In this document: positions 28,935 through 44,413 of the stretch, piece after piece | Numbering within the stretch: position 1 is the stretch's first letter | How the letters are laid out: every line of letters begins with the position of its first letter | IMG/VR virus record: IMGVR_UViG_2684623061_000002 | Coordinates: 1 to 64,000 of that record | DNA length: 64,000 nucleotides | Reading direction: 5' to 3' (one strand) | DNA from: a virus | Taxonomy: Duplodnaviria; Caudoviricetes | Made by a program: the position numbers and the translations under genes | The notes under the pieces: generated by a model | The model's input: the letters and a program-made list of their open reading frames with translations, nothing else | Databases searched by the model: none | What the model was told of the DNA's origin: nothing

Positions 28935-30695
28935 ATGCTTTCTTTCGCGCCTGCACCCAACATCGATCACCGCCGAAGCGCCCGCGCCCTGTACTGGCAG
29001 GGGTGGCGCGTCACGGACATTGCAAAGTTCTATGCGCTCGCTAGAACCACGGTCGAAAGCTGGAAACAGCGCGACAAGTGGGATGACGCCTCGCCGATTG
29101 AGCGCTTGGAATCGTCCATTGAGGCGCGAGTGGTGCAGCTCGTCCACAAAGAGCCGAAGACCGGTAGCGACTACAAAGAAATAGACCTGTTGTGTCGGCA
29201 GATCGAGCGAACGGCGCGGGTTCGACGCTACAGCGAGCCCGGCGGACACGAAGGCGATTTGAATCCGAATATCGCCAAGCGTAATGCCAAGCCGAAGCGC
29301 AAGCCGGTGCGCAACGCGTTCAGTGAGGAACAGCAGGCAAAGCTTATTGCATCGTTTGACGATCAGCTATTCGGCTATCAACGGTATTGGCGCAAGAACG
29401 CCTTCGGCGAGCGAATCCGCAACATTCTCAAGTCGCGGCAGATCGGCGCCACGTTCTACTTTGCGCGTGAGGCATTGGTCGATGCGCTGGAAACCGGGCG
29501 CAATCAAATCTTCCTGTCGGCCAGCAAGGCGCAGGCGCATGTCTTTAAACAATACATTGCGCAGTTCGCGCAGACCGTCGATGTAGACCTCACCGGCGAT
29601 CCGATCATTCTGCCGAACGGCGCGACGCTGTATTTCCTCGGCACCAACGTGCGGACGGCGCAGAGCTATCACGGCAACCTGTACTTTGACGAGTACTTTT
29701 GGACGCATCAGTTCGAAGAACTGCGCAAGGTCGCGGCCGGCATGGCGCTGCATAAGCACTGGCGGCAAACGTATTTCTCTACGCCGTCCAGCGTCACGCA
29801 TCAAGCCTATGCGTTCTGGACGGGTGCCGCGTTCAACAAGGGACGAAGGAAAGAGGATCGGGTCAAGGTTGACGTGTCGCACGAAGCGCTGCGCGACGGT
29901 CGCATGTGCGCGGACGGCCAGTGGCGCCAGATCGTCACCATTGAGGACGCGCTACGCCAGGGTTGCAACCTGTTCGACCTCGATCAATTGCGCTTGGAGT
30001 ACAGCCCGGACGAATGGGCGAACTTGCTTATGTGCGAGTTCGTGGACGACACGCTGTCGGTGTTCCCGCTCGCGGAGATGCAGCGCTGCTTTGTCGATTC
30101 TTGGAGCGTATGGGACGACTTCAAACCGTTTGCGCTGCGACCGCTCGGCCATCGTGAGGTGTGGGTCGGCTATGACCCGGCCTTGACCGGCGACAGCGCC
30201 GGGCTGGTCGTGGTCGCGCCACCGCTGGTGCCGGGCGGGAAGTTCCGCCTGTTGGAAAAGCACCAATGGCGCGGAATGGACTTCAAGACCCAAGCCGAGC
30301 GCATCCGCAAAATTACGCAGCAATACAACGTGACCTATATCGGCGTGGACGCAACCGGAGTGGGTGCCGGCGTGTTCCCGCTGGTGCGTGACTTCTTCCC
30401 TAGCGTTCGGAACATCACGTACTCGGTCGAGACTAAAACCCGAATGGTGTTGAAAGCCAAAGACGTTATTTCCAGCGGACGTTTGGAGTTCGACGCCGCG
30501 TGGACGGATATCGCGCAGGCGTTTATGTCGATCCACAAGGCTCTCACCGCGACCGGCCGGCAGGCCACTTATGAAGCCAGCCGCAGCGACGACATAGGTC
30601 ACGCCGATTTGGCGTGGGCCGTGATGCACGCGCTGGACAACGAACCCTTAGAGGGCATGACCGCCCGCCATCGATCCATTGTGGAGATAATTTAA
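28935..30695 (+). CDS. Terminase ATPase subunit (gpP-like)
   Basis: LYWQG, ILKSRQIGAT, DEYFW, HADLAWA. Confidence 0.97.
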   Translation: MLSFAPAPNIDHRRSARALYWQGWRVTDIAKFYALARTTVESWKQRDKWDDASPIERLESSIEARVVQLVHKEPKTGSDYKEIDLLCRQIERTARVRRYSEPGGHEGDLNPNIAKRNAKPKRKPVRNAFSEEQQAKLIASFDDQLFGYQRYWRKNAFGERIRNILKSRQIGATFYFAREALVDALETGRNQIFLSASKAQAHVFKQYIAQFAQTVDVDLTGDPIILPNGATLYFLGTNVRTAQSYHGNLYFDEYFWTHQFEELRKVAAGMALHKHWRQTYFSTPSSVTHQAYAFWTGAAFNKGRRKEDRVKVDVSHEALRDGRMCADGQWRQIVTIEDALRQGCNLFDLDQLRLEYSPDEWANLLMCEFVDDTLSVFPLAEMQRCFVDSWSVWDDFKPFALRPLGHREVWVGYDPALTGDSAGLVVVAPPLVPGGKFRLLEKHQWRGMDFKTQAERIRKITQQYNVTYIGVDATGVGAGVFPLVRDFFPSVRNITYSVETKTRMVLKAKDVISSGRLEFDAAWTDIAQAFMSIHKALTATGRQATYEASRSDDIGHADLAWAVMHALDNEPLEGMTARHRSIVEII

Positions 30696-31714
30696 TGAGT
30701 GCTGTTGTGCCTGCGGAAGCGGAAGCCACTACGAAGGCCAAGGCGCAAGCCTTCAGCTTCGGCGAGCCGATACCCGTGCTGGACAAGCGCGGTTTGCTGG
30801 AGCACCTGGAATGCGTGCGTAATGGCAAGTGGTACGAACCGCCAGTGTCGCTGGACGGGCTCGCGCGAGCGTTTCGGTCGAGTCCGCATCACGCGTCCGC
30901 CATGTATACGAAGTGCAATATTTTGGTGTCCACCTTCGTGCCGCATCGCTTGCTCAGTGGCGATCAATTCGAAAAACTGGCGCTTGACACGATTGCGCTC
31001 GGCAATGGCTATCTAGAGCGGCGGGACGCGCGGAGCCGCAAGCCCTTGGCGCTGAAACATGCGCTTGCGAAGTTCGTTCGGCGGGGCGTTGACGATGGTC
31101 GATACTTCTTCGTGCGCGGCTGGGAAGATGAACACGAATTCGCGACCGACAGCGTCTTTCACGTGATGGAACCGGACATCAATCAAGAGATATACGGCGT
31201 GCCGCAGTACGTGAGTGCGTTGCAATCGGCGCTGTTGAACGAGTCCGCGACGTTGTTCCGACGCAAGTATTATCTCAACGGCAGTCATGCCGGTTTCATT
31301 ATGTACGTCAACGATGCGGCGCAGGATCAGGCCGACATTGATGCGATGCGCAATGCGCTACGCGATGCCAAGGGCGTCGGCAACTTTCGCAATCTGTTCC
31401 TGTACTCGCCGAATGGCAAGAAAGACGGCGTGCAGGTCATCCCGATTAGCGAAGTCGCGGCGAAGGATGAATTTCTAGGCATCAAGGGGGCGACGCGCGA
31501 TGACGTACTCGCCGCGCATCGCGTGCCGCCGCAGTTGCTGGGCATCGTGCCGAACAATACAGGCGGCTTCGGCGACGTCGAGAAAGCCGCCCGCGTGTTT
31601 GCGCGAAATGAACTGCTGCCGCTGCAAACTCGATTCCAAAGAATTAATGATTGGATTGGGGATGAGGTCATTAAGTTTTTGCCTTATGACCTTGATATGG
31701 CTAGTGGCAAATAG
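30695..31714 (+). CDS. Portal protein (gpQ/PBSX family)
   Basis: WYEPPVS, QEIYG.P.Y, FRRKYY.NGSHAG, AHRVPPQL; TAATG-coupled. Confidence 0.96.
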   Translation: MSAVVPAEAEATTKAKAQAFSFGEPIPVLDKRGLLEHLECVRNGKWYEPPVSLDGLARAFRSSPHHASAMYTKCNILVSTFVPHRLLSGDQFEKLALDTIALGNGYLERRDARSRKPLALKHALAKFVRRGVDDGRYFFVRGWEDEHEFATDSVFHVMEPDINQEIYGVPQYVSALQSALLNESATLFRRKYYLNGSHAGFIMYVNDAAQDQADIDAMRNALRDAKGVGNFRNLFLYSPNGKKDGVQVIPISEVAAKDEFLGIKGATRDDVLAAHRVPPQLLGIVPNNTGGFGDVEKAARVFARNELLPLQTRFQRINDWIGDEVIKFLPYDLDMASGK

Positions 31715-32583: not shown

Positions 32584-35500
32584 TTACAACTGTGGTCGCA
32601 TTGCGTCGGTTTGCTTTTGGTTTTGCTGTTGCTCTGTCAACGCTCGCTCTTGGGTCTGTTGCTGTTCGTAATGCTGGCTTAGCGTCTGCGCCTCGCGCAA
32701 CGAGTCTTGCATCGGCGGCGCCGGCCCTTTCGCATCGACGCCAGCACGATATCCTGGCGTAACGCTGCCGACCCATAGCGTGCCATCCGCGACGCCAACT
32801 TGTCCCAGCCGGTCAACGTCCGGTATGCCGTTGCGCTTTGCTTCCACCATCGCGAGCGCGACGGTTTCATCCGATACGTTCGGCGCGCCACCGCGAATCC
32901 TGGCGAACATTGCTTGATCTTTCAGGCTTAGCTGCGACAGATCGAATGGCTCGGGGGGACGATCCGGCGCCGACCGTGCAGGCTCGTGCGTGCGATCCTC
33001 CTCATGTCTAGCGGTTGCGCGTGAGGATGCTGCGTGTCCGGGCGCATAGGCGAATGGTTCGGTGACCGGTGGCGGCTCGTGGGTTTGCGCCGTTACGGCC
33101 GATTCGTTCGAGGCTGTTTCCCGCGACGGCGAGCGGGATTGCGTTTCGGGTGGCGAGCGGTCGGGGAACCGCGCGTCCTGCGTGTCATCGCTGGCCGCTG
33201 TAGGTGGGCGGTGTTCGTGTACGGGCCGCGTAGGCGCTTCGTAGGGCGGGGGAGTGGCGACGGCGGCGGGTGCCGCGGTTGCCAGGGGCTCGGCACGAGG
33301 CGCGGTGCGGAGAGGCTCCTGTAATGGCTCGGGCGCGTCCGCGCCGCCGACCTTGGATGATTCGATACGCGCGTGTTGTGCCGCCGACAACGCTTGCTGC
33401 GTCGCCGGGTCGGTCATGCCAGTATCGGCTATCCCTTGATCGCGCTGGAACTGGCGCACGGCCTGTTCGGTCTTGGCGTCGTACTGTCCCGTTTGCGGCA
33501 AGGGCTCGCCTTCGGGACCGCGATAGCCGACTCGGTCCAGACGGTACTGCAAAAATTTAACTTCCTGACCTTCGCTGCCCGGACGCAATACATCGTCCGG
33601 GGCCGACGCGGCGGCGCTGGGCGGGTTGACTGCCGCATCCGGCGCGGGGCGGGCCGGTTCCGACCGTGTGACCGGCGAAACCACGTTAGCGGGTGCCGCT
33701 TGATGTTGTGCTGGCGCTGGCGTTTCCGCTTGTGGGGTCGGCTCCGGTTTGGCCGGTTCTGGTTCGGGTGCGAGTTCGACGGTAGGCGCAGCGGCGACCA
33801 CCGCAGGGGCGGGGCTGAATGACCGCTCACGTTCTGGACTGCTGTCCGTCAGCGTGACCGAAGGCGCTTCCGTGTGTGCGGATGGCCTATCGATCGGTAT
33901 CGAATCCGCGCGAGGTGCAGCGGGCGAAGTGGCCTGCGCGGCCGCTTGTTGCGCGACTTGCTGCACTCGGTCATGCGACAAACCTTCCCGATTGGCTTCG
34001 CGTAACGCTTGCTCCTGGGCCTCGCGTTGTTGCGGCGATAGCGCAGCTATCCGCAGTTCTGGGGTGTCCGGGATCAACGCAGGTGGCGCCCGGAGGTCCA
34101 CCATAGCCAACGCAATTTCGTCTCTACTCGTCACCGCCGCCACATGCACGACGCCCGCGCTATCAGCGCGCAGATGCGTGATGGGACTGTTTACGTCGTA
34201 TTTTTTCTCTGCGTTGGGTTCCAAGGACAGCGACGAAGTGGCGCGGTCTATGCCGTGTACGTCGCGCGTCCGCTCGACGGCTTCCAGCGCTGCGGCTAAA
34301 TGCTCCGGGTCCGGTTTGACACCGAACGCGTGATAGGTCGAAACTAAATTGTCCCGGTCTTGTTCCTCGCGCGTCGGCGGTTGCCATTGCGGTATCGCTG
34401 CCGTCTGCTGCTTGTGCTGCGCCAACTGCGGCTCCAAGGCGGCGCGTGTTCTGTCCAATTCCAGGCGCAAATTGCCCTGCGCAATGTCGCCGGATTCACC
34501 TTCACGGTGCCATTGCCCCCTGTCATTGTGGCGGTATTGATTGCCATCCGAAGCGGTGAGCGTGTCGGCGTTCAGTACTGCGCTGACGGCGGGTAGCTTC
34601 GCACCGAACGAAGCCCAGCCGGCTGAGGTATAGGCCAAGTCATAGCGCGCAGCAATCGGAGCTGGGCCGTTGGCGATGTTGTCCCGGATCACTTGCTCCG
34701 ATACCGCGTTAAGCTCCTCTGCGCGCTCCGGTGTCGCAGTTTCGGAACGCGTCATGGGCACGCCGCGCTGTTCAAAGCCGATGACTACGTCTCGATTCCA
34801 TTCGCCGGTACGCGGGTTGTGCTCCCAGTCGGCGCGTTGCAGGCTCGGCGTATCGCTTCGCACGGCCCGGAGTGTGTACGGATCGCGCGGTGGTTCTAGG
34901 TTTCTCGGCGCTAGTGCTAGTGCAGTTGCGGCGTTGCTCGCCCGATAGCTCAGTTCGCGGGCCTTCTCAGGTAGTGCGGAAAACTCCTGTTCAACGGGTT
35001 TATCTGCGCCGTCGTCGCGAAGGTCGGCCTGTTGATCGCGGACCCATTGCCGGCCATTGAAGCTCCAATCTACGTCGTCGCGGTCGGTTTGATTAAAGAC
35101 CCTGTGGTCATCCCACATTTTTGCGGCCTTCTCGCCCACGTAGCTTCCGGATATTGCGCCGACCGCGATAAAGCCAATCACGCCCGGTCCCGTCCAACTG
35201 CCAGCGGCGAGGCCCGAAGCGGCGCCACCGACCCAGCCGCCGACACCGACGCCTGCGTAATGCGCCATTTGCGACTGAGCTGCAAGTGGGTTGTCTTGCG
35301 CAAGTGACCTTGCGGTTCGCTCGCCGGCCTCGGCGGCGTCAACGACGCCAGCGACTAAACCGGCGCCGACGACGGCCTTAATCGCCGCGCCGCGTCCGAT
35401 GGCTCGCGTGGCCGAGCGCTCCGTGGTGGCTAAGTCAGCCTCGATGTGAAGCGCAAACGTCGCGCGAAGTTCCGTGACGCTGGACTCCGAAACCGTCAAG

Positions 35501-36150
35501 CGCCCCGCGCCATGAGCTTGATTGATCGCATCGCGCAGCGTGAGGTGGCCATCGATGCCTTCGCCTTTCGTAGGCTTGAGGCTAGGCTGATTTACCGCTC
35601 GTACTGTTGCGAGAACATTCTTCTCAGACTGAACAACCGCAGCCCACTCCGACTCAGGCATAGGCAGTTTGTTGACCTGACTAATTTGTGTGGCATGGGA
35701 CCGGGCGTATCCCTCGACATCGTCGAAAAAATCTTGTGTTTTCAGCCTGGACTGCGCGGAAGTCATTCCGGCCGGAGTGTTCGTATAGACGTCGCCATTT
35801 ATCAATGCGACCTTGAGTGTGTCCTGCAGATGATGCACACGCTCAACCACGCGCTCGGCAGCGGCGCGATCCCCGTTGAGCGCGGCCTTTCCATCCTTGG
35901 TTGCGGAGATCTCGTTTAGCTGAAATAGAACCCCGTCCGAGTACGCCTTGAAGTGGCCTCCCGTGTGAGGACTCACTCCCAACGTGCCGGCGAGCACTTT
36001 GTCATCGGGTAGATAAATCGTGTTGCGGGGACTATCGAGATCGTGCAGCCCCATTGCCTTAAGCTTTTGTAAGAGCGGGCTTCGGTCGAAAGCCTTGTTC
36101 TGCTCGATACAGTGATGCCACTCGAAGACGTGGCGCTCTGGCGAATTCAT
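32584..36150 (-). CDS. AHH/HNH-type nuclease toxin with peptidoglycan-binding domain and XVIPCD-like C-terminus (X-T4SS effector)
   Basis: HHCIE...LDSPRNTIYLP...PHTGGH..Y; LRPGSEGQEVKFLQ.RL...TEQAVRQFQ; DQAMF..IR...AKRNGI..VD.L followed by a Q-rich tail. Confidence 0.82.
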   Translation of the reverse strand: MNSPERHVFEWHHCIEQNKAFDRSPLLQKLKAMGLHDLDSPRNTIYLPDDKVLAGTLGVSPHTGGHFKAYSDGVLFQLNEISATKDGKAALNGDRAAAERVVERVHHLQDTLKVALINGDVYTNTPAGMTSAQSRLKTQDFFDDVEGYARSHATQISQVNKLPMPESEWAAVVQSEKNVLATVRAVNQPSLKPTKGEGIDGHLTLRDAINQAHGAGRLTVSESSVTELRATFALHIEADLATTERSATRAIGRGAAIKAVVGAGLVAGVVDAAEAGERTARSLAQDNPLAAQSQMAHYAGVGVGGWVGGAASGLAAGSWTGPGVIGFIAVGAISGSYVGEKAAKMWDDHRVFNQTDRDDVDWSFNGRQWVRDQQADLRDDGADKPVEQEFSALPEKARELSYRASNAATALALAPRNLEPPRDPYTLRAVRSDTPSLQRADWEHNPRTGEWNRDVVIGFEQRGVPMTRSETATPERAEELNAVSEQVIRDNIANGPAPIAARYDLAYTSAGWASFGAKLPAVSAVLNADTLTASDGNQYRHNDRGQWHREGESGDIAQGNLRLELDRTRAALEPQLAQHKQQTAAIPQWQPPTREEQDRDNLVSTYHAFGVKPDPEHLAAALEAVERTRDVHGIDRATSSLSLEPNAEKKYDVNSPITHLRADSAGVVHVAAVTSRDEIALAMVDLRAPPALIPDTPELRIAALSPQQREAQEQALREANREGLSHDRVQQVAQQAAAQATSPAAPRADSIPIDRPSAHTEAPSVTLTDSSPERERSFSPAPAVVAAAPTVELAPEPEPAKPEPTPQAETPAPAQHQAAPANVVSPVTRSEPARPAPDAAVNPPSAAASAPDDVLRPGSEGQEVKFLQYRLDRVGYRGPEGEPLPQTGQYDAKTEQAVRQFQRDQGIADTGMTDPATQQALSAAQHARIESSKVGGADAPEPLQEPLRTAPRAEPLATAAPAAVATPPPYEAPTRPVHEHRPPTAASDDTQDARFPDRSPPETQSRSPSRETASNESAVTAQTHEPPPVTEPFAYAPGHAASSRATARHEEDRTHEPARSAPDRPPEPFDLSQLSLKDQAMFARIRGGAPNVSDETVALAMVEAKRNGIPDVDRLGQVGVADGTLWVGSVTPGYRAGVDAKGPAPPMQDSLREAQTLSQHYEQQQTQERALTEQQQNQKQTDAMRPQL

Positions 36151-36201
36151 GCGGCGTATCCCTGCCTAAATGCGATACCTGGGGTTTGCGATAAGGACCA
36201 A

Positions 36202-36858
36202 TCAATCCTTGGTCATGTCGATAAAGCGGATGCCAGTAAATCCATGTCCGCCAAGCGCGTTTCGCGTCACCCAGTCGCAGAATACGAAGTCCCCCGAATA
36301 CGGTGTTCTGAAGACGTGAGCGGCGCCCAGTACGTCACTCTTGAACACCAGATTGACGTTCCCTCCCAGACGGTAATACTTGCCGTTGTCGTACTCGTCA
36401 CTCACAACGACTCGGAGCCTTGAGCGCTCTTCGTCCACGGCGTCCAGTTCGCGAACGACATCGCACAAGAAGCGTTGAGGCCCAGGTGTTCCGTCAGGTA
36501 GCGTGAAGTCGCATGCAACGAATGCAAAGCCTTGGGGATCGACCGTCTCTAGCGCGTTCTTCAACGGCTCCGAGACAAGCCAATACCCACTCAGGCTGGC
36601 CTCAAGATCGCGGGGCATGTCGCCTGCGTCCGGGTCATAAACAAGATGAGGCTTTTCTGGCATCGCCGGGAACCCACCGCTCTCCGGCCGAATAATTAAG
36701 CGGGGCGGGCTCAGCAACTTGTCTTCATTAGCGATCACGACGCCGTGTCCTGGACCCTCGCCACGTATGTCCGTGTCGATGATGAAGAACTTCCCCTGCT
36801 TGGGAACACGCTGCGTATCGGTTTGCATAGCGGCTGCGCTCATCATTACGGTTTCCAT
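36202..36858 (-). CDS. Immunity protein (DUF1629/Imm11-like)
   Basis: GYWLVSE.LK....VDP..FAF..CD motif; immediately upstream of the toxin; exact start uncertain. Confidence 0.8.
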   Translation of the reverse strand: METVMMSAAAMQTDTQRVPKQGKFFIIDTDIRGEGPGHGVVIANEDKLLSPPRLIIRPESGGFPAMPEKPHLVYDPDAGDMPRDLEASLSGYWLVSEPLKNALETVDPQGFAFVACDFTLPDGTPGPQRFLCDVVRELDAVDEERSRLRVVVSDEYDNGKYYRLGGNVNLVFKSDVLGAAHVFRTPYSGDFVFCDWVTRNALGGHGFTGIRFIDMTKD

Positions 36859-37012
36859 CCTGGATTGCAGCGAGTATCGCCTATGCGTTGCGCCGCTGGC
36901 ATAGGATTTTTCCTACGCGAGGGTAAGGGCCACCCTCACGGAACTGTTGATGTGCCAAAGGAGCACAGACCTGCGCCTTGTGGCATAGGCGGCAGCCAGC
37001 GGCGCTGGCGCG

Positions 37013-37033
37013 CGGTCGAGACCCCGCCACGCC
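37013..37033 (-). other. Putative cohesive end site (cos)
   Basis: Minus strand GGCGTGGCGGGGTCTCGACCG; GGCG(T/A)GGCGGGG is the P2/186-family cos signature; lies distal to the portal gene. Confidence 0.75.
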
Positions 37034-37235
37034 TTCCCGCTACTTGTGTGCCTTTCGACTCAAATCACTGAGCCGGGCGCGCGCCCCGCCCGGAATGGCG
37101 ATAGATGTGCTCGGCGATGGCATTTTTTCGACGCGATTAGACGCACGCAAGGCGGTTTTTTGGCGCTGCGGCGAGCGCTCTCGATCGGTCGGTGAAATGA
37201 GCGGAAATCGCGGCTCTTTCCAGGCCAGGGGAGGG

Positions 37236-37536
37236 GCCATCGGAAAACGGTAACCTCATCGGGAAGGCCCGTTTTTTACTCGTAAGCCTATGATATTACA
37301 ACGATTATCAGGTTACCGCTGGGAGGTAATTTTCGGTAACTCGTCCGGTAACCGATGCGTAAGTAATTGATTTTAAAGAAGGTGCTAAGGCCGGGAGATT
37401 ACCTATACCTAGAGGTAATTAATTACCTTCTAGTTACTCTAATGGTTACCGCCGCCCTTCGCTGTAAGTCATTGTTGATATTAGGAAAAGCAGTTGCACG
37501 GAGCCCACGTTACCGATGTTACCGATTTCCGATGGC
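37236..37536. repeat. AT-rich iteron array bounded by 19-bp inverted repeats (candidate replication origin)
   Basis: About 12 GGTAA(C/T) / (G/A)TTACC copies, central palindrome AGGTAATTAATTACCT, IHF consensus at 37360-37372. Confidence 0.65.
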
Positions 37537-37620
37537 GCCCCAAATATTCTGGACTCATATAGCTCCGGCCAAAGTCTGCACAATCTCAGGCTGTAAGACG
37601 CTGGCCGCTACGATAGCTTC

Positions 37621-37920
37621 ATGCCTTCTTGTCTTGTTCGATACCGGGTCGTGATCGCGCCGCGTGGCCCCCGTGGCGCTGATCCTGCGCACGGCGTCGC
37701 CGGCACCGCCCAGGTTGATGAGGAATGGGAGCCCGACGAATGGGGCGATCCCGGTCGTTGCATCCGGCGTCGAACCCTCGTAGAGCTGCGCGGCTGTGAT
37801 GGTGGGTGCTATCTCGACCGCGCGCAGGGCCGCTCCGGCTTCTGGCGTATTACGTGCGCGAAAGTCGCCGGTCCGATCCGCTGGGCCGACGTGGCAGGCA
37901 TCGACATGGACCCGTGTTAG
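37621..37920 (+). CDS. Hypothetical protein
   Basis: 99-aa ORF between the iteron region and the retron promoter. Confidence 0.45.
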   Translation: MPSCLVRYRVVIAPRGPRGADPAHGVAGTAQVDEEWEPDEWGDPGRCIRRRTLVELRGCDGGCYLDRAQGRSGFWRITCAKVAGPIRWADVAGIDMDPC

Positions 37921-38011
37921 TTGAGCCTGGCAGGCCACTTATGGGAAGGCGAAGGGGGAGTGAGCAATCGCAAGTGGTCACTTTGGCCATGTCGCTGTGG
38001 GCGAACAAATG

Positions 38012-38040
38012 TTGACTCTGAGCGAACATGCGCGTAACGT
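38012..38040 (+). promoter_or_regulatory. Sigma70 promoter of the retron operon
   Basis: TTGACT-17 nt-TAACGT. Confidence 0.75.
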
Positions 38041-38044
38041 CCGT

Positions 38045-38354
38045 CACAGGTTCGTTAGGTGCTAGGAATCTCGGGTTTCACATCGGGCATTAGCCTGTGG
38101 GGGCGTCACGCTCCTGACCAATGCGGCGTGTCGGTAACAGGTCGAATTTCGATCATGGTCCGAGGGGTCGATACTAAGACCGTTCCCGAGAGGGGAACGG
38201 GGTTGATGATTAGAGGGACACGAAACTTATCTACCTAGTGGTCATAAACATCTTGTTGGAAATCCGAGAGGGCTTCGCAATTCTGCGGAGTCTTTTCAAC
38301 AAGGAGTTTTCTGTTTATGACAATCGATTCAAGCGAGCCTGATAAGTCTCTGTC
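38045..38354 (+). ncRNA. Putative retron ncRNA (msr/msd and translational repressor hairpin)
   Basis: Hairpins at 38099-38114, 38140-38154, 38180-38200 and a long stem 38217-38354 upstream of HTH-RT; boundaries approximate. Confidence 0.7.
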
Positions 38355-38487
38355 GGTCAAAAAGAACCGTCGCAACTGGGCAACATTCTTTGTGACGGTC
38401 GTTCTCACGGTGTCAAGAGTGGTAAGCGTTGCGCGATTCATCGATGACGCGATCCATACAATCCGCGAGTGGCTGACTAACCTTTAA
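38317..38487 (+). CDS. Small 56-aa protein, putative retron toxin (not in the ORF track)
   Basis: AAGGAG RBS at 38301-38306; MTIDSSEPDKSLSVKKNRRNWATFFVTVVLTVSRVVSVARFIDDAIHTIREWLTNL. Confidence 0.75.
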   Translation: MTIDSSEPDKSLSVKKNRRNWATFFVTVVLTVSRVVSVARFIDDAIHTIREWLTNL

Positions 38488-38512
38488 TTCATCTTTATTT
38501 TTGGAGTGCACA

Positions 38513-38827
38513 ATGGATAAATCCCAAATTTCTGAAGCGCTGCGATTGCTACGCTCATATCATGATCTGAGCCAAATTGATTTGGCGGCTCAGTTGAATA
38601 TTTCACGCTCCTATCTATCCGAGTTGGAAAGCGGTAAGCGACAGCCGAGCTTGGAACTGCTGAAGAATTATTCGCAGCATTTTAATGTGCCACTATCGGC
38701 AATTCTTTTGTTTTCTGAGTCGGTTGAATCTGGGGCCGTTGCGGAGCAGGCGCGTAAGGTTTCAACGAATGCTGCGCTTAAGTTGTTGAGTTGGGTTGAC
38801 AGTCATCGACGCGGCAAGGCTGCATGA
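38513..38827 (+). CDS. XRE-family HTH protein, retron-associated
   Basis: LSQIDLAAQLNISRSYLSELESGKRQPS; GGAG RBS; ATGA overlap with RT. Confidence 0.92.
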   Translation: MDKSQISEALRLLRSYHDLSQIDLAAQLNISRSYLSELESGKRQPSLELLKNYSQHFNVPLSAILLFSESVESGAVAEQARKVSTNAALKLLSWVDSHRRGKAA

Positions 38828-39759
38828 GCAAAGTTCTTCGCAAGTCCTATCCTGCTGCGCAATCGCCCTTATTTAGGTTGCGATCGAAGGCAAGGCTTGC
38901 GGAGTTGCTTGACGAAACTCCCAGACGGGTTCGAGAACTGATCACAGATAAGAACTACTGTGAATGGTTCACGAAGGCAAAGTACCCTGATTCCACGCAT
39001 CCGGCGTTAGTGCACAAACCAAGGGCGATTCAACAGCCTTTGGGGGCGTTGGATATGGCCCAGCGGCGATTGAATTCATTATTGTCGCGCATCGAATTGC
39101 CGGACTATCTGCACTCTGCGAGAAAGGGTAGGTCTTACCGGACCAACGCCGCTGCTCATTCCTCAGCTGGCCGGGCTATAAAAGTAGACATTCGCCAGTT
39201 CTACAGAAGCATCAACGATAGCTACATCCATGCATTCTTCAGGGATGTAATGGAATGCAGTCCAGACGTGACGCATATTCTTACAGAGCTAGCATCATTC
39301 GAGCGATATCTACCTACCGGAAGTTCATTGAGTCCGATAGTTTCATTTTTCGCCTACTGGCCCATGTTCGACAAGTTAAACAGCGTGGCGTCTTCAGTAG
39401 GTGCACAAATGACCGTGTACGTCGACGATGTAGTCATATCCGGTCCCGGCGTGTCCGGTTCTTTGATCCCGATTTGCAAGCGCATAATGAAAGATCACGG
39501 GCTGCGTGGTCATAAAGTTGCCTATTACCATTCAGGTAAGACTCGCGTGGTCACTGGCGTAGCTGTAAGTCCCAGAGGTCTTTCGATTCCCAATAAGCGA
39601 CTGATGAAGATTCGCGCTTTGCGCCAAGAAATGGATGCGGCAGTGGATCCTGCGACTAAAGCGCTTTACAAGCAGGCGGTGCTTGGACAGCTTAGGGAGG
39701 GCAGCCCGCTTGATCCGTCTTTTAGGACTTATAGTCAGGCGATCGAACGGATGGCGTAG
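38824..39759 (+). CDS. Retron-type reverse transcriptase
   Basis: NAAAH (region X), KVDIRQFY, LPTGSSLSP, YVDD, VTG (region Y). Confidence 0.95.
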   Translation: MSKVLRKSYPAAQSPLFRLRSKARLAELLDETPRRVRELITDKNYCEWFTKAKYPDSTHPALVHKPRAIQQPLGALDMAQRRLNSLLSRIELPDYLHSARKGRSYRTNAAAHSSAGRAIKVDIRQFYRSINDSYIHAFFRDVMECSPDVTHILTELASFERYLPTGSSLSPIVSFFAYWPMFDKLNSVASSVGAQMTVYVDDVVISGPGVSGSLIPICKRIMKDHGLRGHKVAYYHSGKTRVVTGVAVSPRGLSIPNKRLMKIRALRQEMDAAVDPATKALYKQAVLGQLREGSPLDPSFRTYSQAIERMA

Positions 39760-39908
39760 AGGGCTCGCCGGACACGTCAGTCCCCAGGTGCCCCAACACC
39801 AGCCGCCCCAGCCGCTCCCTTTGCTGGCGAAGGCGGAGGCCCGATCCCAGACTTAAATAGCGAAATCCGCAACGGTCAGCGCCCGATTACGGTCGAACGA
39901 GAAACAAT

Positions 39909-40199
39909 ATGGCTAAAGACACTCGCAAAACATCGAACACTAAAGGCGGCTCGAAATCGAAGTCCGCCGCCGGGACTGCAATTAAGAGCGATAAATCGGG
40001 AGCCTGGATAATTTCGAGCCGGAGTTCTAAGTCCGCGGCTGGGTCAGCATTGACGCAATCTGTTGGATCGCGGCGTGCGAGTAATGGCGAGTTCGTTCGG
40101 TTAGTACTGTCGTTGCCCGGCAAGAGCGGTTTGTCACGCGATAAGGTTGCGAAAGCCATAGACTCAGTTCAATCGAAGAAATCGAATAAAAAGGGCTGA
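39909..40199 (+). CDS. Small basic Ser/Lys-rich protein
   Basis: 96 aa, contains KSAAGTAI and KSAAGSALTQ; stop is 6 nt before the next gene. Confidence 0.7.
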   Translation: MAKDTRKTSNTKGGSKSKSAAGTAIKSDKSGAWIISSRSSKSAAGSALTQSVGSRRASNGEFVRLVLSLPGKSGLSRDKVAKAIDSVQSKKSNKKG

Positions 40200-40205
40200 T
40201 GCCAA

Positions 40206-40826
40206 ATGAAGACAGACTATGCGGCAAGTGTCTTTATTAATTGCCCATTTGACGCCGAGTACCGCGCGCTTCTTTTCGCTAAAGTTTTTGCCGTGTTTGA
40301 TTGCGGCTACTTGCCGCGTTGTTCTCAAGAAATTGAGGATGGCGGCGAGGTTCGGATTGAGAAGATAAGAAATATTATTCGTGAATGCAAATTCGGCGTA
40401 CATGATATTTCGAGAATTCAGGTGAATGGTGATCCGCCACTGCCTCGCTTCAATATGCCTTTTGAGTTAGGTCTCTTTGTCGGCGCCCGAATTTATGGTG
40501 GTGGAGACCAGAAGAAGAAAGTATGTTTAATTTTAGATGCTGATAAGTACCGTTATCAAAGGTCTCTGTCCGATATTGCCGGGCATGATATCCAAGAGCA
40601 TGGGAATGACCCGGAAATTGTTATTAAGAAAATAAGGAACTGGTTGCAGAATGCCACGCAGAGAAAGACCATTCCAGGCGGTCATATTATCGTCCAAAGG
40701 TACCGCCAGTTCATGGCTGAGCTTCCGGGTATCTGCGATACCCTAAATCTACAACAAGACACTTTGCTATTTAATGAGTTCGCTTTAATCGTAGAGACGT
40801 GGCTTAAGAAGAAGGACCCTGATTGA
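40206..40826 (+). CDS. TIR/nucleoside-deoxyribosyltransferase-like protein
   Basis: VFINCPFD, I..C..GVHD.S, NMPFELG, SDIAG.D; low GC. Confidence 0.72.
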   Translation: MKTDYAASVFINCPFDAEYRALLFAKVFAVFDCGYLPRCSQEIEDGGEVRIEKIRNIIRECKFGVHDISRIQVNGDPPLPRFNMPFELGLFVGARIYGGGDQKKKVCLILDADKYRYQRSLSDIAGHDIQEHGNDPEIVIKKIRNWLQNATQRKTIPGGHIIVQRYRQFMAELPGICDTLNLQQDTLLFNEFALIVETWLKKKDPD

Positions 40827-40877
40827 TGGTGGCTAGTGCACTCTTTCGTTGCACCAACTAAATAAAAGGTGACGATC

Positions 40878-41123
40878 ATGGCAAATAAGACCACAGGCTC
40901 CAAAGCAGCGACCTCTGCTTCGAACGTGCTGAAATCCAGCAGTACGGGTAAGGCATCCAAAGCGGCAGCTGGTAGCGCCCTCACTCAAAAAGGTAACGCG
41001 CGAGAGACGACGTCCAAAAAGGTGGCGACTCAGGCGTCTAACGTATTGCGCGACGGCCGTACTTCTCCCGAGTCGAAGAGCGCCGCCGGCAGTGCGCTAT
41101 CGCAAGCCAAGCGAAAGAAATAG
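40878..41123 (+). CDS. Small basic protein built from two 33-aa repeats
   Basis: TTGSKAATSASNVL...SKAAAGSALTQ and TTSKKVATQASNVL...SKSAAGSALSQ; AAAGGTG RBS. Confidence 0.8.
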   Translation: MANKTTGSKAATSASNVLKSSSTGKASKAAAGSALTQKGNARETTSKKVATQASNVLRDGRTSPESKSAAGSALSQAKRKK

Positions 41124-41163
41124 CTTGCTTTTGCCGGGAAAATTGGGGGGCGTGCAGACACTC

Positions 41164-41219
41164 AATCAACCACTTAACTAGATGTGTTCGGTAAAAATAC
41201 CCGATCTAAGTAGTTGATT
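41164..41219. promoter_or_regulatory. Two inverted IHF consensus sites in the att arm
   Basis: AATCAACCACTTA (41164-41176) and reverse AATCAACTACTTA (41207-41219) match WATCAANNNNTTR. Confidence 0.7.
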
Positions 41220-41236
41220 TGACAGCTAAGTTCATC

Positions 41237-41285
41237 AGACTTTTAATCTTTTGGTCGAAGGTTCGAATCCTTCACGACCCACCAA
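41237..41285 (+). repeat. att core: right end of prophage 1 and left end of prophage 2
   Basis: Exact copy of the tRNA-Lys 3' half (836-884). Confidence 0.96.
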
Positions 41286-41292
41286 TTTTCCA

Positions 41293-41316
41293 GGGGCTTC
41301 AGCGAAGCCCCCGTTT
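41293..41316 (+). terminator. Hairpin/terminator after the second att copy
   Basis: GGGGCTTC-AGC-GAAGCCCC with a short T run. Confidence 0.6.
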
Positions 41317-41342
41317 CCGCAATTACGGAAACTTTCCGCAAC

Positions 41343-42377
41343 TCATTTCGTCGGGGTGACCTTGTCGCCCCTGCGGTTGCGGATGTACTGCTCCGTCATC
41401 GTCACGGACGCGTGCCCCAATTGCTTCTGAGCCTGCCGGATGTCGCCGGCGGATTCCGCCTTGTCGGTTGCCGCCTTCGCGCGCAGGTCGCGCACCTGGA
41501 AGGCTGCCTTCGGCACCCCGGCCAGCCTTCGCGCCTTGTCGAAGCGATAGCGAAGCGCGCCAGGGGCGAGCGGGCGGCCGTCCTCGTCGACTATCAGCCG
41601 CGTGTGGTAGACCTCGCATGCGCGCTTCCTGGCCCTGATCCGCTCGATCACCTGCGCCAGCTCCCCTTCGACCGAAATCCGGCGCCGCTCCCTCGTCTTG
41701 CCCTGCTTGAGGTGCAAGAACCCGTCGCGTATGTCGGTGTCGTCGTACTTCCGCGTATCCGCCGGCCGCTGCCCGCAGAGATAGGCCAGGTCGAGTGCAT
41801 CGCGTAGCGGCTGGTCTGCCTGCGCGTAGACTGCGGCGAACACGTCGTCCTCGACGTACACGTCCCGGCCGCGCTCCTCGCTGCCCTGGATGCCCTTGCA
41901 TGGATTCTCCGCGTCCGTATAGCCCCACTGCCGCGCCTTGTTCCACATGTGCGAGAGCAGCGCCTTCTCGCGGTTCGCGCGCACCTTGGCCTTGGTGCCG
42001 TGCACCGTGCGCCAGTCCAGATACTGAGCGACATGCATCGGCCGCATGCTCGCAAGCGGCGCCGGCGGAGAGCCAAAGAACTCGCGCAGCTTGGCCAGTT
42101 CGCTGAGGTTTGACGTCTGCGTGCTCTCTGCCTTCGTCGGGATCACTTCGCGGGTGTAGCGATCGGCCAGGTGCGTGAACGTGATGATGTCGGGTACGGA
42201 GTGCTGTGCGGATTCCAGTTCAGCCCAACGTCGGACGGCCTCCGCATACACCCTTCCGAGCGAAAGCTCGCCCGGCTTCTTGGGGCGCTGGTCGTAGAAG
42301 TAATATGTGACCTTGCCGCGGACACGCGCAAGCATGCGCGGCGGCAGGTTGTGGAACCTGGATCGCTTCCGCCCCAT
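41343..42377 (-). CDS. Tyrosine recombinase / phage integrase
   Basis: GQRPAD, RDLRAKAATD, LGHASVTMTEQY. Confidence 0.95.
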   Translation of the reverse strand: MGRKRSRFHNLPPRMLARVRGKVTYYFYDQRPKKPGELSLGRVYAEAVRRWAELESAQHSVPDIITFTHLADRYTREVIPTKAESTQTSNLSELAKLREFFGSPPAPLASMRPMHVAQYLDWRTVHGTKAKVRANREKALLSHMWNKARQWGYTDAENPCKGIQGSEERGRDVYVEDDVFAAVYAQADQPLRDALDLAYLCGQRPADTRKYDDTDIRDGFLHLKQGKTRERRRISVEGELAQVIERIRARKRACEVYHTRLIVDEDGRPLAPGALRYRFDKARRLAGVPKAAFQVRDLRAKAATDKAESAGDIRQAQKQLGHASVTMTEQYIRNRRGDKVTPTK

Positions 42378-42379
42378 CG

Positions 42380-42604
42380 TCAGCTCGCCTTAGAAAGAAC
42401 TCGCGGGGTCCAGGCCTTCGGGTCTTGTGCCGCCGGAGTGCCGTCGACTGCGGAGACCGGCACGACAGGCCAGCCAGCCGCATTGATCGAATGGCGGATG
42501 CCGTTCTGCAACAGGTTGCGGATCTGGCCGGCCTTGGTGTGCGCGCCGGTCAGCTCGGCAACCTCACCGTGCGAGCCAGGCGTCAGTAACAGTCGTTCTC
42601 CCAT
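42380..42604 (-). CDS. Excisionase-like protein (DUF4224-like)
   Basis: VAELTG....AGQ...L..NGI.H.IN..GWPVV; directly upstream of the integrase. Confidence 0.78.
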   Translation of the reverse strand: MGERLLLTPGSHGEVAELTGAHTKAGQIRNLLQNGIRHSINAAGWPVVPVSAVDGTPAAQDPKAWTPRVLSKAS

Positions 42605-43215
42605 CACCCCTCCCCGCGCCGAGCGCTGGTGTCCAACCGCTTGAACTCGACCGCCCACACCCAGGGGTTCGCGTCCCAGTCGCCGCCGGTGCTGGCCCAC
42701 AGCCGTCGGAAGCGCTCGCGCGCGTAGCCGGCAACGCTGGTGTTGGTGCGATCTACGCCCTCGGCCCCAGCGTCGGCGTCGCTGATGCCCTGCAGCCGCT
42801 CGACGCGCACGCCGGTGACTTCCAGCACGATGCGGCAGGCCCAGCGCGGCATGTGGATGGCAGGCCGGCGGCGGTCAGATAGGTGCCACCATCGGGCTTT
42901 GTCCGGCTCGCCGTCAGCCACATACCACAGTGGCTTGTTCCCGAATTTCGTCGGTGGCAGTTCGTCGTATCCGCGCGATGCGATGAAGGTCTCTCGCACC
43001 CACAGCCGGTCGCCGGGCTGTCCGTAGGGGCAGGCGGCGACCGCATCAGGATCGGCAATGTGCCATTGCTTTGCCGCGCCGCGCTGAACGCGTCCGGCCA
43101 TGTTGAGTTTCACCAGGCGCCGCGTCTGCGTCTTGGTGCCGTTGAGGATCGCGCGCACCATCGGCGCGCTGAAGAGGATCGGGCGCTCGCGAGCACTGGT
43201 GTTCGTGGTCTTCAT
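42604..43215 (-). CDS. Phage ASCH/PUA-like hypothetical protein
   Basis: ERPILFSAPMVRAIL.G.KTQTRR, GDRLWVRE, ANPWVW.VEF. Confidence 0.85.
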   Translation of the reverse strand: MKTTNTSARERPILFSAPMVRAILNGTKTQTRRLVKLNMAGRVQRGAAKQWHIADPDAVAACPYGQPGDRLWVRETFIASRGYDELPPTKFGNKPLWYVADGEPDKARWWHLSDRRRPAIHMPRWACRIVLEVTGVRVERLQGISDADAGAEGVDRTNTSVAGYARERFRRLWASTGGDWDANPWVWAVEFKRLDTSARRGEG

Positions 43216-44192
43216 GCTGCGGCCCTCAGGTCTCGTTTGGCCTCGAGGTAGGGGCGGATGAAGACGCTCGCCGGCCTCGGGTCGATCGCGTTTCCGAGGG
43301 CGCGCAGCTTAGCCACTCGGGCGGGTATCCCATTACCCAGCCAGCGAACTCGGGGTGGAGGGAGCGCCCGCCATTTTCCGTCGGGGCATTCGACGTAATG
43401 GCGGCCGTCGATACCTGCGACGGCAGCGGCGAACCCCCGGCTCCGAAACTCATGCTCGGTCCACCCTTCGCCCCATCCGAGGCCCGCAAGGTCGACCACA
43501 GGGCGAGCACCACCTCGTTCAAAGGCCTGGCGTTGCGCGACAAGGTTGCTTCGCTCGCCGCCGCCGACTTCCAATCCCTCGCTGTCGCTGTCGCTGTCGC
43601 TGTCGGCCAGAGGCCGAGCAGGATTGATCGGATCGCCACCTGCCCCGCAGAGTTGCCCCCCTCGTTGTTGCCATTGCGCGCCGGCGCGTTGCTGGTCATC
43701 GTCGGCCACAATCCAATAGCGATCCCGGAAATGGTCCGCGTCTGCGCTCGCGGCTTCGACTGGTCGCGCTGCCACGGCGTAACCCATGGCTTCCAGGTCA
43801 CCGAACAGGAGACCGAGCCACTGAGTAGCGCTCGCAACTTGCTCTCCAAAGAGCACGCTAGGGCGGCGCTGCTGGATGAGGTGCTGCCATGCCGGCCAGA
43901 GATGCCGCTCGTCTTCAAACCCAGCGCCTTTACCTGCGACGCTGAAAGGCTGGCAAGGGCAGCTACCAGTCCAGACGGGCTGATCGTCCGGCCATCCGGC
44001 AAGACGAAGGGCGTAAGACCATCCCCCGATGCCGGCAAAGAAATGACACTGGGTGAACTCGGTGAGTTCGTCGGGTCGGACATCCTCGATGCTCCTTTCG
44101 TCGACCACGCCAGGCGCGATCAGGCCGGCTTCAATGAGGTTGCGCAGCCACTGCGCAGCGTAGGGGTCGAACTCGTTGTAGTAGGCCGTCAT
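43212..44192 (-). CDS. DNA (cytosine-5) methyltransferase, large subunit
   Basis: FFAGIGG (I), GSCPCQPFS (IV), GEQV (VI), RDR (VIII), GNAI (X); start re-called at MTAYYNE. Confidence 0.92.
   Translation of the reverse strand: MTAYYNEFDPYAAQWLRNLIEAGLIAPGVVDERSIEDVRPDELTEFTQCHFFAGIGGWSYALRLAGWPDDQPVWTGSCPCQPFSVAGKGAGFEDERHLWPAWQHLIQQRRPSVLFGEQVASATQWLGLLFGDLEAMGYAVAARPVEAASADADHFRDRYWIVADDDQQRAGAQWQQRGGQLCGAGGDPINPARPLADSDSDSDSEGLEVGGGERSNLVAQRQAFERGGARPVVDLAGLGWGEGWTEHEFRSRGFAAAVAGIDGRHYVECPDGKWRALPPPRVRWLGNGIPARVAKLRALGNAIDPRPASVFIRPYLEAKRDLRAAA
43226..44083 (-). CDS. Nested alternative-frame methyltransferase subunit carrying a motif IX-like segment
   Basis: 285-codon open frame inside the MTase ending LHPEFAGWVMGYPPEW; true start unknown. 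Confidence 0.65.
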   Translation of the reverse strand: MSDPTNSPSSPSVISLPASGDGLTPFVLPDGRTISPSGLVAALASLSASQVKALGLKTSGISGRHGSTSSSSAALACSLESKLRALLSGSVSCSVTWKPWVTPWQRDQSKPRAQTRTISGIAIGLWPTMTSNAPARNGNNEGGNSAGQVAIRSILLGLWPTATATATARDWKSAAASEATLSRNARPLNEVVLALWSTLRASDGAKGGPSMSFGAGGSPLPSQVSTAAITSNAPTENGGRSLHPEFAGWVMGYPPEWLSCAPSETRSTRGRRASSSAPTSRPNET

Positions 44193-44413
44193 GCTTTGCT
44201 CCACGGCCATTTGAAGTTGAAGATGTCTTGGAGGAAGACCCAGGGTTTGAGCAGGCCGGCGTTCACGATGAACTCTGGGCCGGCGTTGCAGCCCTCCAGG
44301 ATCTCGACTCCATGCGAGCGCCAGTAGTCCAGGTTCGCCGGATCGTCCAGCACCTCGAACCAGAACGAGGACGTTGCCGTCTTGACGTGCAGGTGCAGCC
44401 ACTTCTTAGTCAT
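44189..44413 (-). CDS. Phage hypothetical protein
   Basis: ATGA-coupled to the MTase. Confidence 0.6.
   Translation of the reverse strand: MTKKWLHLHVKTATSSFWFEVLDDPANLDYWRSHGVEILEGCNAGPEFIVNAGLLKPWVFLQDIFNFKWPWSKA

Follow-up and report, generated by a model that had tools for sequence, protein, structure and literature searches.

A probable type VI retron with a small protein embedded in its RNA, carried as cargo by a P2-like prophage

We analyzed a stretch of 64,000 nucleotides (nt) from a virus of the Caudoviricetes (Duplodnaviria; IMG/VR record IMGVR_UViG_2684623061_000002, positions 1 to 64,000), called the window below, and in it a locus at 38012-39759 on the + strand. This locus is very likely a type VI retron whose effector, a small protein (SP), is encoded inside the retron RNA. 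It runs from a promoter through a structured leader of ~270 nt to an open reading frame (ORF) of 56 amino acids (aa), an XRE-type helix-turn-helix (HTH) gene and a gene for a 311-aa reverse transcriptase (RT). We assign it to type VI because PADLOC profiles match both RT and HTH protein, the gene order fits, the small ORF is conserved and the RNA is structured. The genes are as follows.

38317-38487, + strand: SP ORF, 56 aa (ORF listing)
38501-38827, + strand: HTH ORF as opened by TTG in the ORF listing; the likelier ATG start at 38513 gives 104 aa
38513-38827, + strand: HTH protein of 104 aa, with GGAG at 38503-06 ahead of ATG 38513; relatives start at the matching residue
38824-39759, + strand: retron RT, 311 aa (PADLOC RT_VI, Pfam RVT_1)

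The RT matched PADLOC RT_VI at 1.4e-75 (252 bits), with 267 of the 279 profile positions covered; the next-best PADLOC type, RT_III-A, reached 112 bits (4.8e-33). Pfam identified the protein as RVT_1, all ten sequence matches in the Protein Data Bank (PDB) were retron RTs, and the retron matches in NCBIfam were below threshold only. The motifs NAxxH (N108, A109, H112), YVDD (Y199, D201, D202) and VTG (T244, G245) are complete, and their residues fall on invariant columns in an alignment of 27 RT sequences. Membership in the non-retron RT families Abi and DRT was considered and rejected: the best such match, to Drt3a, gave 4.2e-05 and 23 bits with a cut-off of 200, and every stronger match was to a retron RT.

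The start codon of the RT gene, an ATG, overlaps the HTH stop codon by 4 nt. The HTH protein itself matched PADLOC HTH_VI (2e-32) and Pfam HTH_3 (6.6e-14), and its sequence context makes ATG 38513 the likelier start over TTG 38501. Its structural model has a five-helix XRE core followed by a long C-terminal helix (residues 75-103), in which L92 and W94 are invariant. The locus thus combines the features of type VI retrons (classes of Mestre et al. 2020, as summarised in part of the text of bioRxiv 10.64898/2026.04.27.721009): the RT profile, an adjoining Cro/C1-type HTH gene, and an upstream helical SP with a hydrophobic C-terminal core. Structure prediction and covariation add a hybrid RNA that contains the SP, sequesters its start and includes a long-range inverted repeat. 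An earlier note, made from the letters of this DNA, had read the locus as a type VI-like retron with an XRE HTH gene and an RT bearing NAxxH, YVDD and VTG, and had suggested checking whether the RT falls inside or outside the retrons. Its description holds throughout, and the PADLOC and PDB matches place the RT inside.

The SP begins with a polar N-terminus and continues through a basic patch and a hydrophobic core (~residues 21-42) to an amphipathic C-terminal helix. AlphaFold2 modeled it as a single helix over residues 11-55, with a predicted local distance difference test (pLDDT) score of 70; Kyte-Doolittle hydropathy peaked at 1.89 (19-residue span), and the hydrophobic moment reached 0.81 near residue 40. 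Pfam, PADLOC and NCBIfam gave no match to it. In a collection of 5.8 billion proteins, which contains the RT as a shortened 234-aa call, the SP itself is absent and one protein matched it at 70%. A profile built from eight SPs retrieved 12 representatives among 1.84 billion proteins, most of them similar in size and two N-extended (91 and 106 aa). Eleven of these representatives have similar C-termini.

Conservation of the small ORF is seen at several depths. A frame with a polar start, basic patch and hydrophobic helix lies directly upstream of the HTH gene in most related loci, and length and build are retained in far clades whose sequences are unalignable. In the closest clade, seven of nine loci have an open frame of 55-59 aa with a shared C-terminal motif. 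A purine-rich motif resembling a ribosome-binding site (RBS) precedes the SP ATG in all nine of these loci (read by eye). The ratio of nonsynonymous to synonymous substitution rates (dN/dS) was 0.29, 0.26 and 0.33 in three closer pairs, and rose to 0.51 in distant pairs, where dS is saturated. These comparisons indicate that the SP is a real coding sequence. The earlier note had picked out this ORF, missed by the gene track, for its basic patch and hydrophobic/amphipathic helix, and had named its conservation as a check; the ORF and its build are both borne out, place, size and build are kept across relatives, and the absence of the SP from the protein collection agrees with its having been missed. 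A role as toxic effector is argued by analogy, because experiments on Retron-Vpa2 and Retron-Sen3 show it there, according to the parts of the two preprints cited below.

Leader and SP coding sequence together make up the predicted hybrid RNA, which would extend from ~38047 to ~38495. Its elements, all on the + strand, are listed in order; IR denotes an inverted repeat and R1 a covariance model built over 38171-38324.

38047-38240, + strand: first arm of the hybrid RNA, msr-msd-like (RNAalifold; same layout in single-sequence folds of nine loci)
38061-66 : 38234-39, + strand: tentative helix closing the first arm
38084-97 and 38099-38115, + strand: small hairpins in the first arm, with compensatory changes (RNAalifold)
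~38116-38175, + strand: variable long hairpin in the first arm (RNAalifold, single-sequence folds)
38180-87 : 38193-200, + strand: hairpin Pc (R1 helix 1)
38208-38216, + strand: IR1, 5' strand of a long-range helix, pairing with IR2
38241-38321, + strand: riboregulator (R1)
38241-49 : 38313-21, + strand: anti-start helix, covering the AUG at 38317-19 (R1)
38252-58 : 38297-303, + strand: anti-RBS helix, overlapping the Shine-Dalgarno (SD) element at 38301-06 (R1)
38270-79 : 38284-93, + strand: inner hairpin of the riboregulator (R1)
38352-58 : 38471-77, + strand: helix inside the SP coding sequence
38481-38489, + strand: IR2, 3' strand of the long-range helix, covering the final SP codon, its stop (38485-87) and the 2 nt that follow

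The fold of 38040-38520 (481 nt) gave z = -3.5 against shuffles. Leader and ORF sequences from nine loci, aligned with MAFFT, gave an RNAalifold consensus with 39 pairs; compensatory changes occur in 16. R1 matched 20 loci, 11 of which lie outside its building set; 86.4% of 507 alignment cells pair in these matches, versus 38.6-47.8% with the partners slid. On the R1 alignment 27 of 32 pairs changed on both sides, a count reached by 0 of 500 shuffles, with the adverse point that this alignment was fitted to the model structure and so is biased in its favor. Pairing there amounts to 93% of cells in hairpin Pc (six of its eight pairs changed on both sides), 96% in helix 2 and 85% in helix 3.

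Both long-range helices were assessed on an unfitted MAFFT alignment, in which 97.2% of cells paired versus 20-54% when slid, and five of 16 pairs were compensatory. For IR1-IR2 in nine loci, 97.5% of cells paired and three of nine pairs had changed on both sides; the values for the helix inside the SP coding sequence were 96.8% and two of seven. By a measure of further pair types, these two helices were not significant (86 of 500 shuffles). One relative (L001) combines a change in IR1 with a matching change in IR2, which turns the last SP residue from Leu to Arg. The closing helix of the first arm looks covarying by eye, and a duplex test of it was significant in one of 15 loci only. We infer an msd at ~38116-38203. 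Rfam gave no match at the locus, and sub-threshold matches only elsewhere in 36000-42500.

In the window, the unpaired probability of the SP AUG was 0.01. In single-sequence partition functions it did not exceed 0.10 in 14 of 16 loci and was 0.61 and 0.39 in the other two (L023 and L028, respectively). For the HTH start codon it was at least 0.30 in 12 of 16. The predicted folds and their covariation therefore support a lock on the SP start by an RNA hairpin. The earlier note had proposed this lock, together with a hairpin-rich leader of about 270 nt: the z-score and covarying helices bear out the leader, and the covarying anti-start helix and the paired AUG lend support to the lock. A separate scan of viral contigs for a pattern combining IR1 with the 3' end of the SP returned 33 stretches, none of which R1 matched; all were set aside as chance.

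Two identical 9-nt direct repeats form a candidate docking pair for multicopy single-stranded DNA (msDNA).

38186-38194, + strand: direct repeat 1, 9 nt, in and beside the Pc loop
38264-38272, + strand: direct repeat 2, 9 nt, in the riboregulator

A repeat of 7-9 nt, with a 7-nt core kept, is present in both the Pc loop and the riboregulator in all nine close loci. In a sister clade (L017, L026-L033), both copies carry an identical G-to-A change. A quick IQ-TREE tree of 52 RTs nests this clade (support 100) within the other repeat form, so the two copies changed in one concerted step. Such a change fits the docking proposed for msDNA. Clade-specific repeats of 7-9 nt also occur in distant clades; they were left unused as evidence, given ~1.8 exact 7-mer repeats per 330 nt by chance (our own estimate) and the close kinship of the loci.

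Expression of the hybrid RNA would start from a promoter just upstream of it, which is overlapped by a second kind of repeat.

38012-38040, + strand: promoter (-35 TTGACT at 38012-17, 17-nt spacer, -10 TAACGT at 38035-40)
37995-38007 and 38016-38028: two 13-nt direct repeats (repeat search), the first just upstream of the -35 element and the second in the spacer

The -35 hexamer is good, whereas the -10 hexamer matches the consensus at three of six positions, and a generic promoter scan called no + strand site within 37400-41300. Transcription is predicted to start at ~38047. An identical -35 hexamer with a TAnnnT-like element ~17 nt downstream (16-17 nt, read from the alignment by eye) recurs at the matching place in all 15 related loci compared, namely homologous loci with an R1-type RNA match whose upstream DNA was scanned. 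Because of this recurrence we judge the promoter to be real, though weak by consensus, and the earlier note's sigma70 promoter at these positions is retained on the same comparison. The spacer copy of the 13-nt repeat is retained in both RT clades, and within it an 8-nt block (38021-38028) is near-invariant over the two clades (the window plus the 15 loci). Just upstream of -35, a palindrome of this half-site is present in some relatives and contains the upstream repeat copy (by eye). The repeats are a candidate operator for the HTH protein, and the spacer block is likely to be an operator.

Among the closest described systems is the type VI Retron-Vpa2, from Vibrio parahaemolyticus (Zhang et al., bioRxiv 10.1101/2025.10.22.683967, cited here from part of its text), whose hybrid RNA joins an msr-msd to a toxic SP under translational repression. 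According to that text, the HTH protein is a repressor of reverse transcription, msDNA increases under the action of phage recombination proteins, and SP translation requires msDNA; the authors propose that the msDNA copy of a first repeat pairs with the second, freeing the start site. The window resembles Retron-Vpa2, as far as described there, in its order of structured RNA, SP, HTH and RT, in an SP coding sequence within the hybrid RNA, and in a sequestered RBS and start codon. Further shared points are inverted repeats that tie the 3' end to the first arm, direct repeats in the msd loop and riboregulator, and an SP of ~55 aa with a hydrophobic C-terminal part (56 aa in the window). The two differ in host and RT clade, likeness between the SP sequences is undetectable, and the window element is prophage cargo.

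With moderate confidence, we favor a prophage-cargo type VI retron that would work as follows, its msDNA synthesis, trigger, SP toxicity and defense all being argued by analogy with Retron-Vpa2. The promoter at 38012-40 would drive a hybrid RNA of three arms. The first would serve as an msr-msd-like template; the second, the riboregulator, would pair the SP start codon and part of the SD; the third would be the SP coding sequence, tied to the first by the helix that uses its last codon and stop, with the HTH and RT genes next. In a resting lysogen the RNA fold would block SP translation, while the HTH protein would restrain reverse transcription and probably the promoter too. Infection by another phage would let msDNA from the first arm accumulate. 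This msDNA, whose copy of direct repeat 1 complements direct repeat 2, would dock on the riboregulator and help to free the start site. The hydrophobic SP would then be made and arrest the cell, an abortive infection that would protect the lysogen population and the prophage. Translational unlocking of the Vpa2 type is somewhat more likely than not as the mode of control, and we prefer it because the anti-start helix covaries and the repeats change together. A fuller version is tentative: the direct repeats would be a co-evolving msDNA docking pair, a finishing ribosome would unzip the clamp on the last SP codon and stop, coupling SP translation to reverse transcription, and the HTH operator in the promoter spacer would add a third layer.

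Several findings weigh against this mechanism. The concerted repeat change is one evolutionary event. In silico, forcing direct repeat 2 to be single-stranded left the SP AUG at an unpaired probability of 0.01, and outside the repeat the candidate msDNA was no more complementary to the riboregulator than shuffles were (376 of 500 did as well). The -10 element is weak. Codon positions of the SP vary equally (49, 44 and 50 of 55 columns), and its frame is broken in two of the nine close loci (L004, L024). Retron-Sen3, finally, has the same order and an RNA-embedded SP and yet makes SP and single-stranded DNA (ssDNA) constitutively (Garcia-Rodriguez et al., bioRxiv 10.64898/2026.04.27.721009, likewise cited from part of its text); architecture alone therefore does not settle the mode of control.

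The two broken frames come from metagenome assemblies (L004 2472-2646 and L024 1720-1895). Different small deletions disrupt them, the RNA elements are kept and R1 still matches; they may reflect loss of the toxin or assembly error.

Operation in the manner of Retron-Sen3 is possible, if doubtful. SP and ssDNA would then be made constitutively, the C-terminal helix of the HTH protein would neutralize the SP post-translationally, infection would release the SP, for example through loss of RecBCD activity, and the RNA fold would be a scaffold. The cited part of that preprint describes the HTH protein as a post-translational antitoxin and RecBCD loss as the trigger, and its models place the SP interface on the sixth HTH helix. 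The long extra C-terminal helix of the window HTH model, with its invariant L92 and W94, would suit such a role, as would the amphipathic C-terminal helix of the SP. Retron-Sen3 and its cl2075 group also share with the window the SP-HTH-RT order, an IR1-IR2 helix flanking the SP, selection on RNA structure within the SP coding sequence and an HTH protein extended by a C-terminal helix. Against this, a covarying helix buries the window start codon, and the direct repeats are kept and changed together, both features of the Vpa2 model. The window SP has 56 aa (55 in Retron-Vpa2) and lacks the ~25-residue N-terminal extension of cl2075; the SP of Retron-Sen3, at 79 aa, has an N-terminal extension. 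The window RT also falls outside the tree clade of a Yersinia phage RT, a clade that may represent the Sen3/cl2075 lineage. As further differences between the two, IR2 of Retron-Sen3 lies downstream of the stop, whereas that of the window covers the last codon and stop; the preprint reports IR1-IR2 covariation to be not significant, while three of nine pairs are compensatory in the window family.

Two further explanations fare much worse than unlocking of the Vpa2 type. The weak -10 and the distance of all relatives, the nearest RT being 60% identical, would suit a retron in the prophage cargo zone that has decayed or fallen silent and is no longer functional; this is very improbable, as none of the three ORFs is disrupted, the residues of the catalytic and retron motifs occupy invariant columns, and the RNA helices and both repeats are undamaged. 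Least probable, by a small step, is that the 56-aa frame is untranslated and its conservation reflects the structure of a plain retron non-coding RNA: helices within the frame and at its end, codon positions that vary alike and frameshifts in two of nine loci whose RNA elements persist would fit, but dN/dS of 0.26-0.33 in closer pairs, the RBS-like motif in nine of nine loci, a length and build that outlast alignability, the 11 similar C-termini among the 12 representatives and the effector role demonstrated for the SP in Retron-Vpa2 and Retron-Sen3 (in the cited parts of both preprints) speak against it.

Long-range mRNA structure also locks the start site of small hydrophobic toxins in type I toxin-antitoxin loci such as hok/sok and tisB/istR, where the lock is controlled by antisense RNA and mRNA processing. 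There is no homology to these loci, and the key proposed for the lock in the window differs, being a reverse transcriptase and its DNA product.

Relatives of the locus are distant. The RT at 60% identity was the nearest in the 5.8 billion proteins. A single-protein search for the locus found no relatives in genome contigs or viral contigs, whereas a query with an RT alignment retrieved 57 related loci, 46 of them with an HTH gene upstream of the RT; relatives were also found in eight IMG/VR contigs. By tblastn, type VI-like RTs occur in 35 phage records, including Peduoviridae, the best match being Burkholderia phage KS5 at 34.8% identity. Like the window element, KS5 is P2-like and has an HTH-RT pair (gp45/gp44) adjoining the portal gene, with a small basic-then-hydrophobic ORF upstream; it differs in its RT, and R1 has no match in the KS5 leader.

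The small ORF of KS5, upstream of HTH-RT at L058 502-756, is unannotated. A basic-then-hydrophobic ORF upstream of HTH-RT in Yersinia phage vB_YenM_56.17 (L059 1977-2141) is annotated as 'hypothetical protein'; both are cultured P2-like phages. In Salmonella phage S.Kent 1-2-1 (L060 1617-2834), a 75-aa basic/hydrophobic ORF directly precedes the RT, with no HTH gene between them.

The retron lies inside an integrated element whose landmarks are listed here.

~835-41285: P2/phiCTX-like prophage carrying the retron (attachment-site (att) repeats, PHROGs matches)
808-883: tRNA-Lys gene, adjoining the integrase
30614-31714: portal gene (PHROGs)
~41236-41285: repeat of the tRNA-Lys 3' half, ~50 bp, bracketing the element at its far end

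We place the prophage at ~835-41285, with the retron inside, because ~50 bp of the tRNA-Lys 3' half are repeated at the far end. From the tRNA-Lys end, PHROGs matches run in the order integrase, primase, tape measure, sheath, fiber, capsid, terminase and portal, and part of the terminase-portal region has ~75% DNA identity to P2-like phages of Ralstonia, Burkholderia and Pseudomonas. These structural and replication genes, with the 50-bp repeat, agree with the P2-like prophage proposed at the outset. The retron occupies a cargo zone between the portal gene and the ~41236-41285 repeat, between both att copies, and the guanine plus cytosine (GC) content at 38-41 kb is 47-53%, versus ~64% around it. 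In P2-like phages, the cos-proximal zone lying between gpA and gpQ, the portal protein, is a hotspot for defense systems, retrons included (Rousset et al. 2022, PMC9122126, from part of the text).

Other genes, some of them ORFs of no assigned function, lie in and near this zone. At 32584-36858 on the - strand, a gene for an 1188-aa protein with a weak N-terminal match to an AHH-like nuclease (0.0003) and a peptidoglycan-binding domain is followed by an Imm11 gene (4.3e-66); the two look like a polymorphic toxin-immunity pair. Downstream of the RT, at 39909-41123 (+ strand), are three low-GC ORFs, one of 206 aa flanked by Lys/Ser-rich ORFs of 96 and 84 aa whose common match spans only 5 residues. 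The family to which the 206-aa protein belongs is widespread and unnamed, and its TIR-like lead is weak (Pfam 0.016; Atlas score 0.85); this could be a further defense gene. Beyond the prophage, at 41343-44402 (- strand), a second integrase gene begins ~60 bp past the att repeat and is followed by a C-5 DNA methylase gene, an arrangement suggestive of two mobile elements in tandem at one tRNA-Lys site.

The design of a toxin embedded in retron RNA is already published, in the 2025 (Retron-Vpa2) and 2026 (Retron-Sen3) preprints, and the window holds a divergent new lineage of it. The earlier note's view that the system was likely uncharacterised thus stands for this member and falls for its kind, RNA-locked small toxins of type VI retrons having been in preprints since October 2025. 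Until now, the folding of a toxin gene into the template RNA of an RT had been described for enterobacterial and Vibrio systems, in those two preprints; the locus extends it to P2-like prophages of high-GC Proteobacteria, which carry this rare and divergent lineage. The family offers natural compensatory mutants for tests of unlocking by msDNA, namely the clade with both repeats changed together and the IR1/IR2 double change that alters the last amino acid. For annotation, it adds another defense-system effector that is a small ORF skipped by gene callers.

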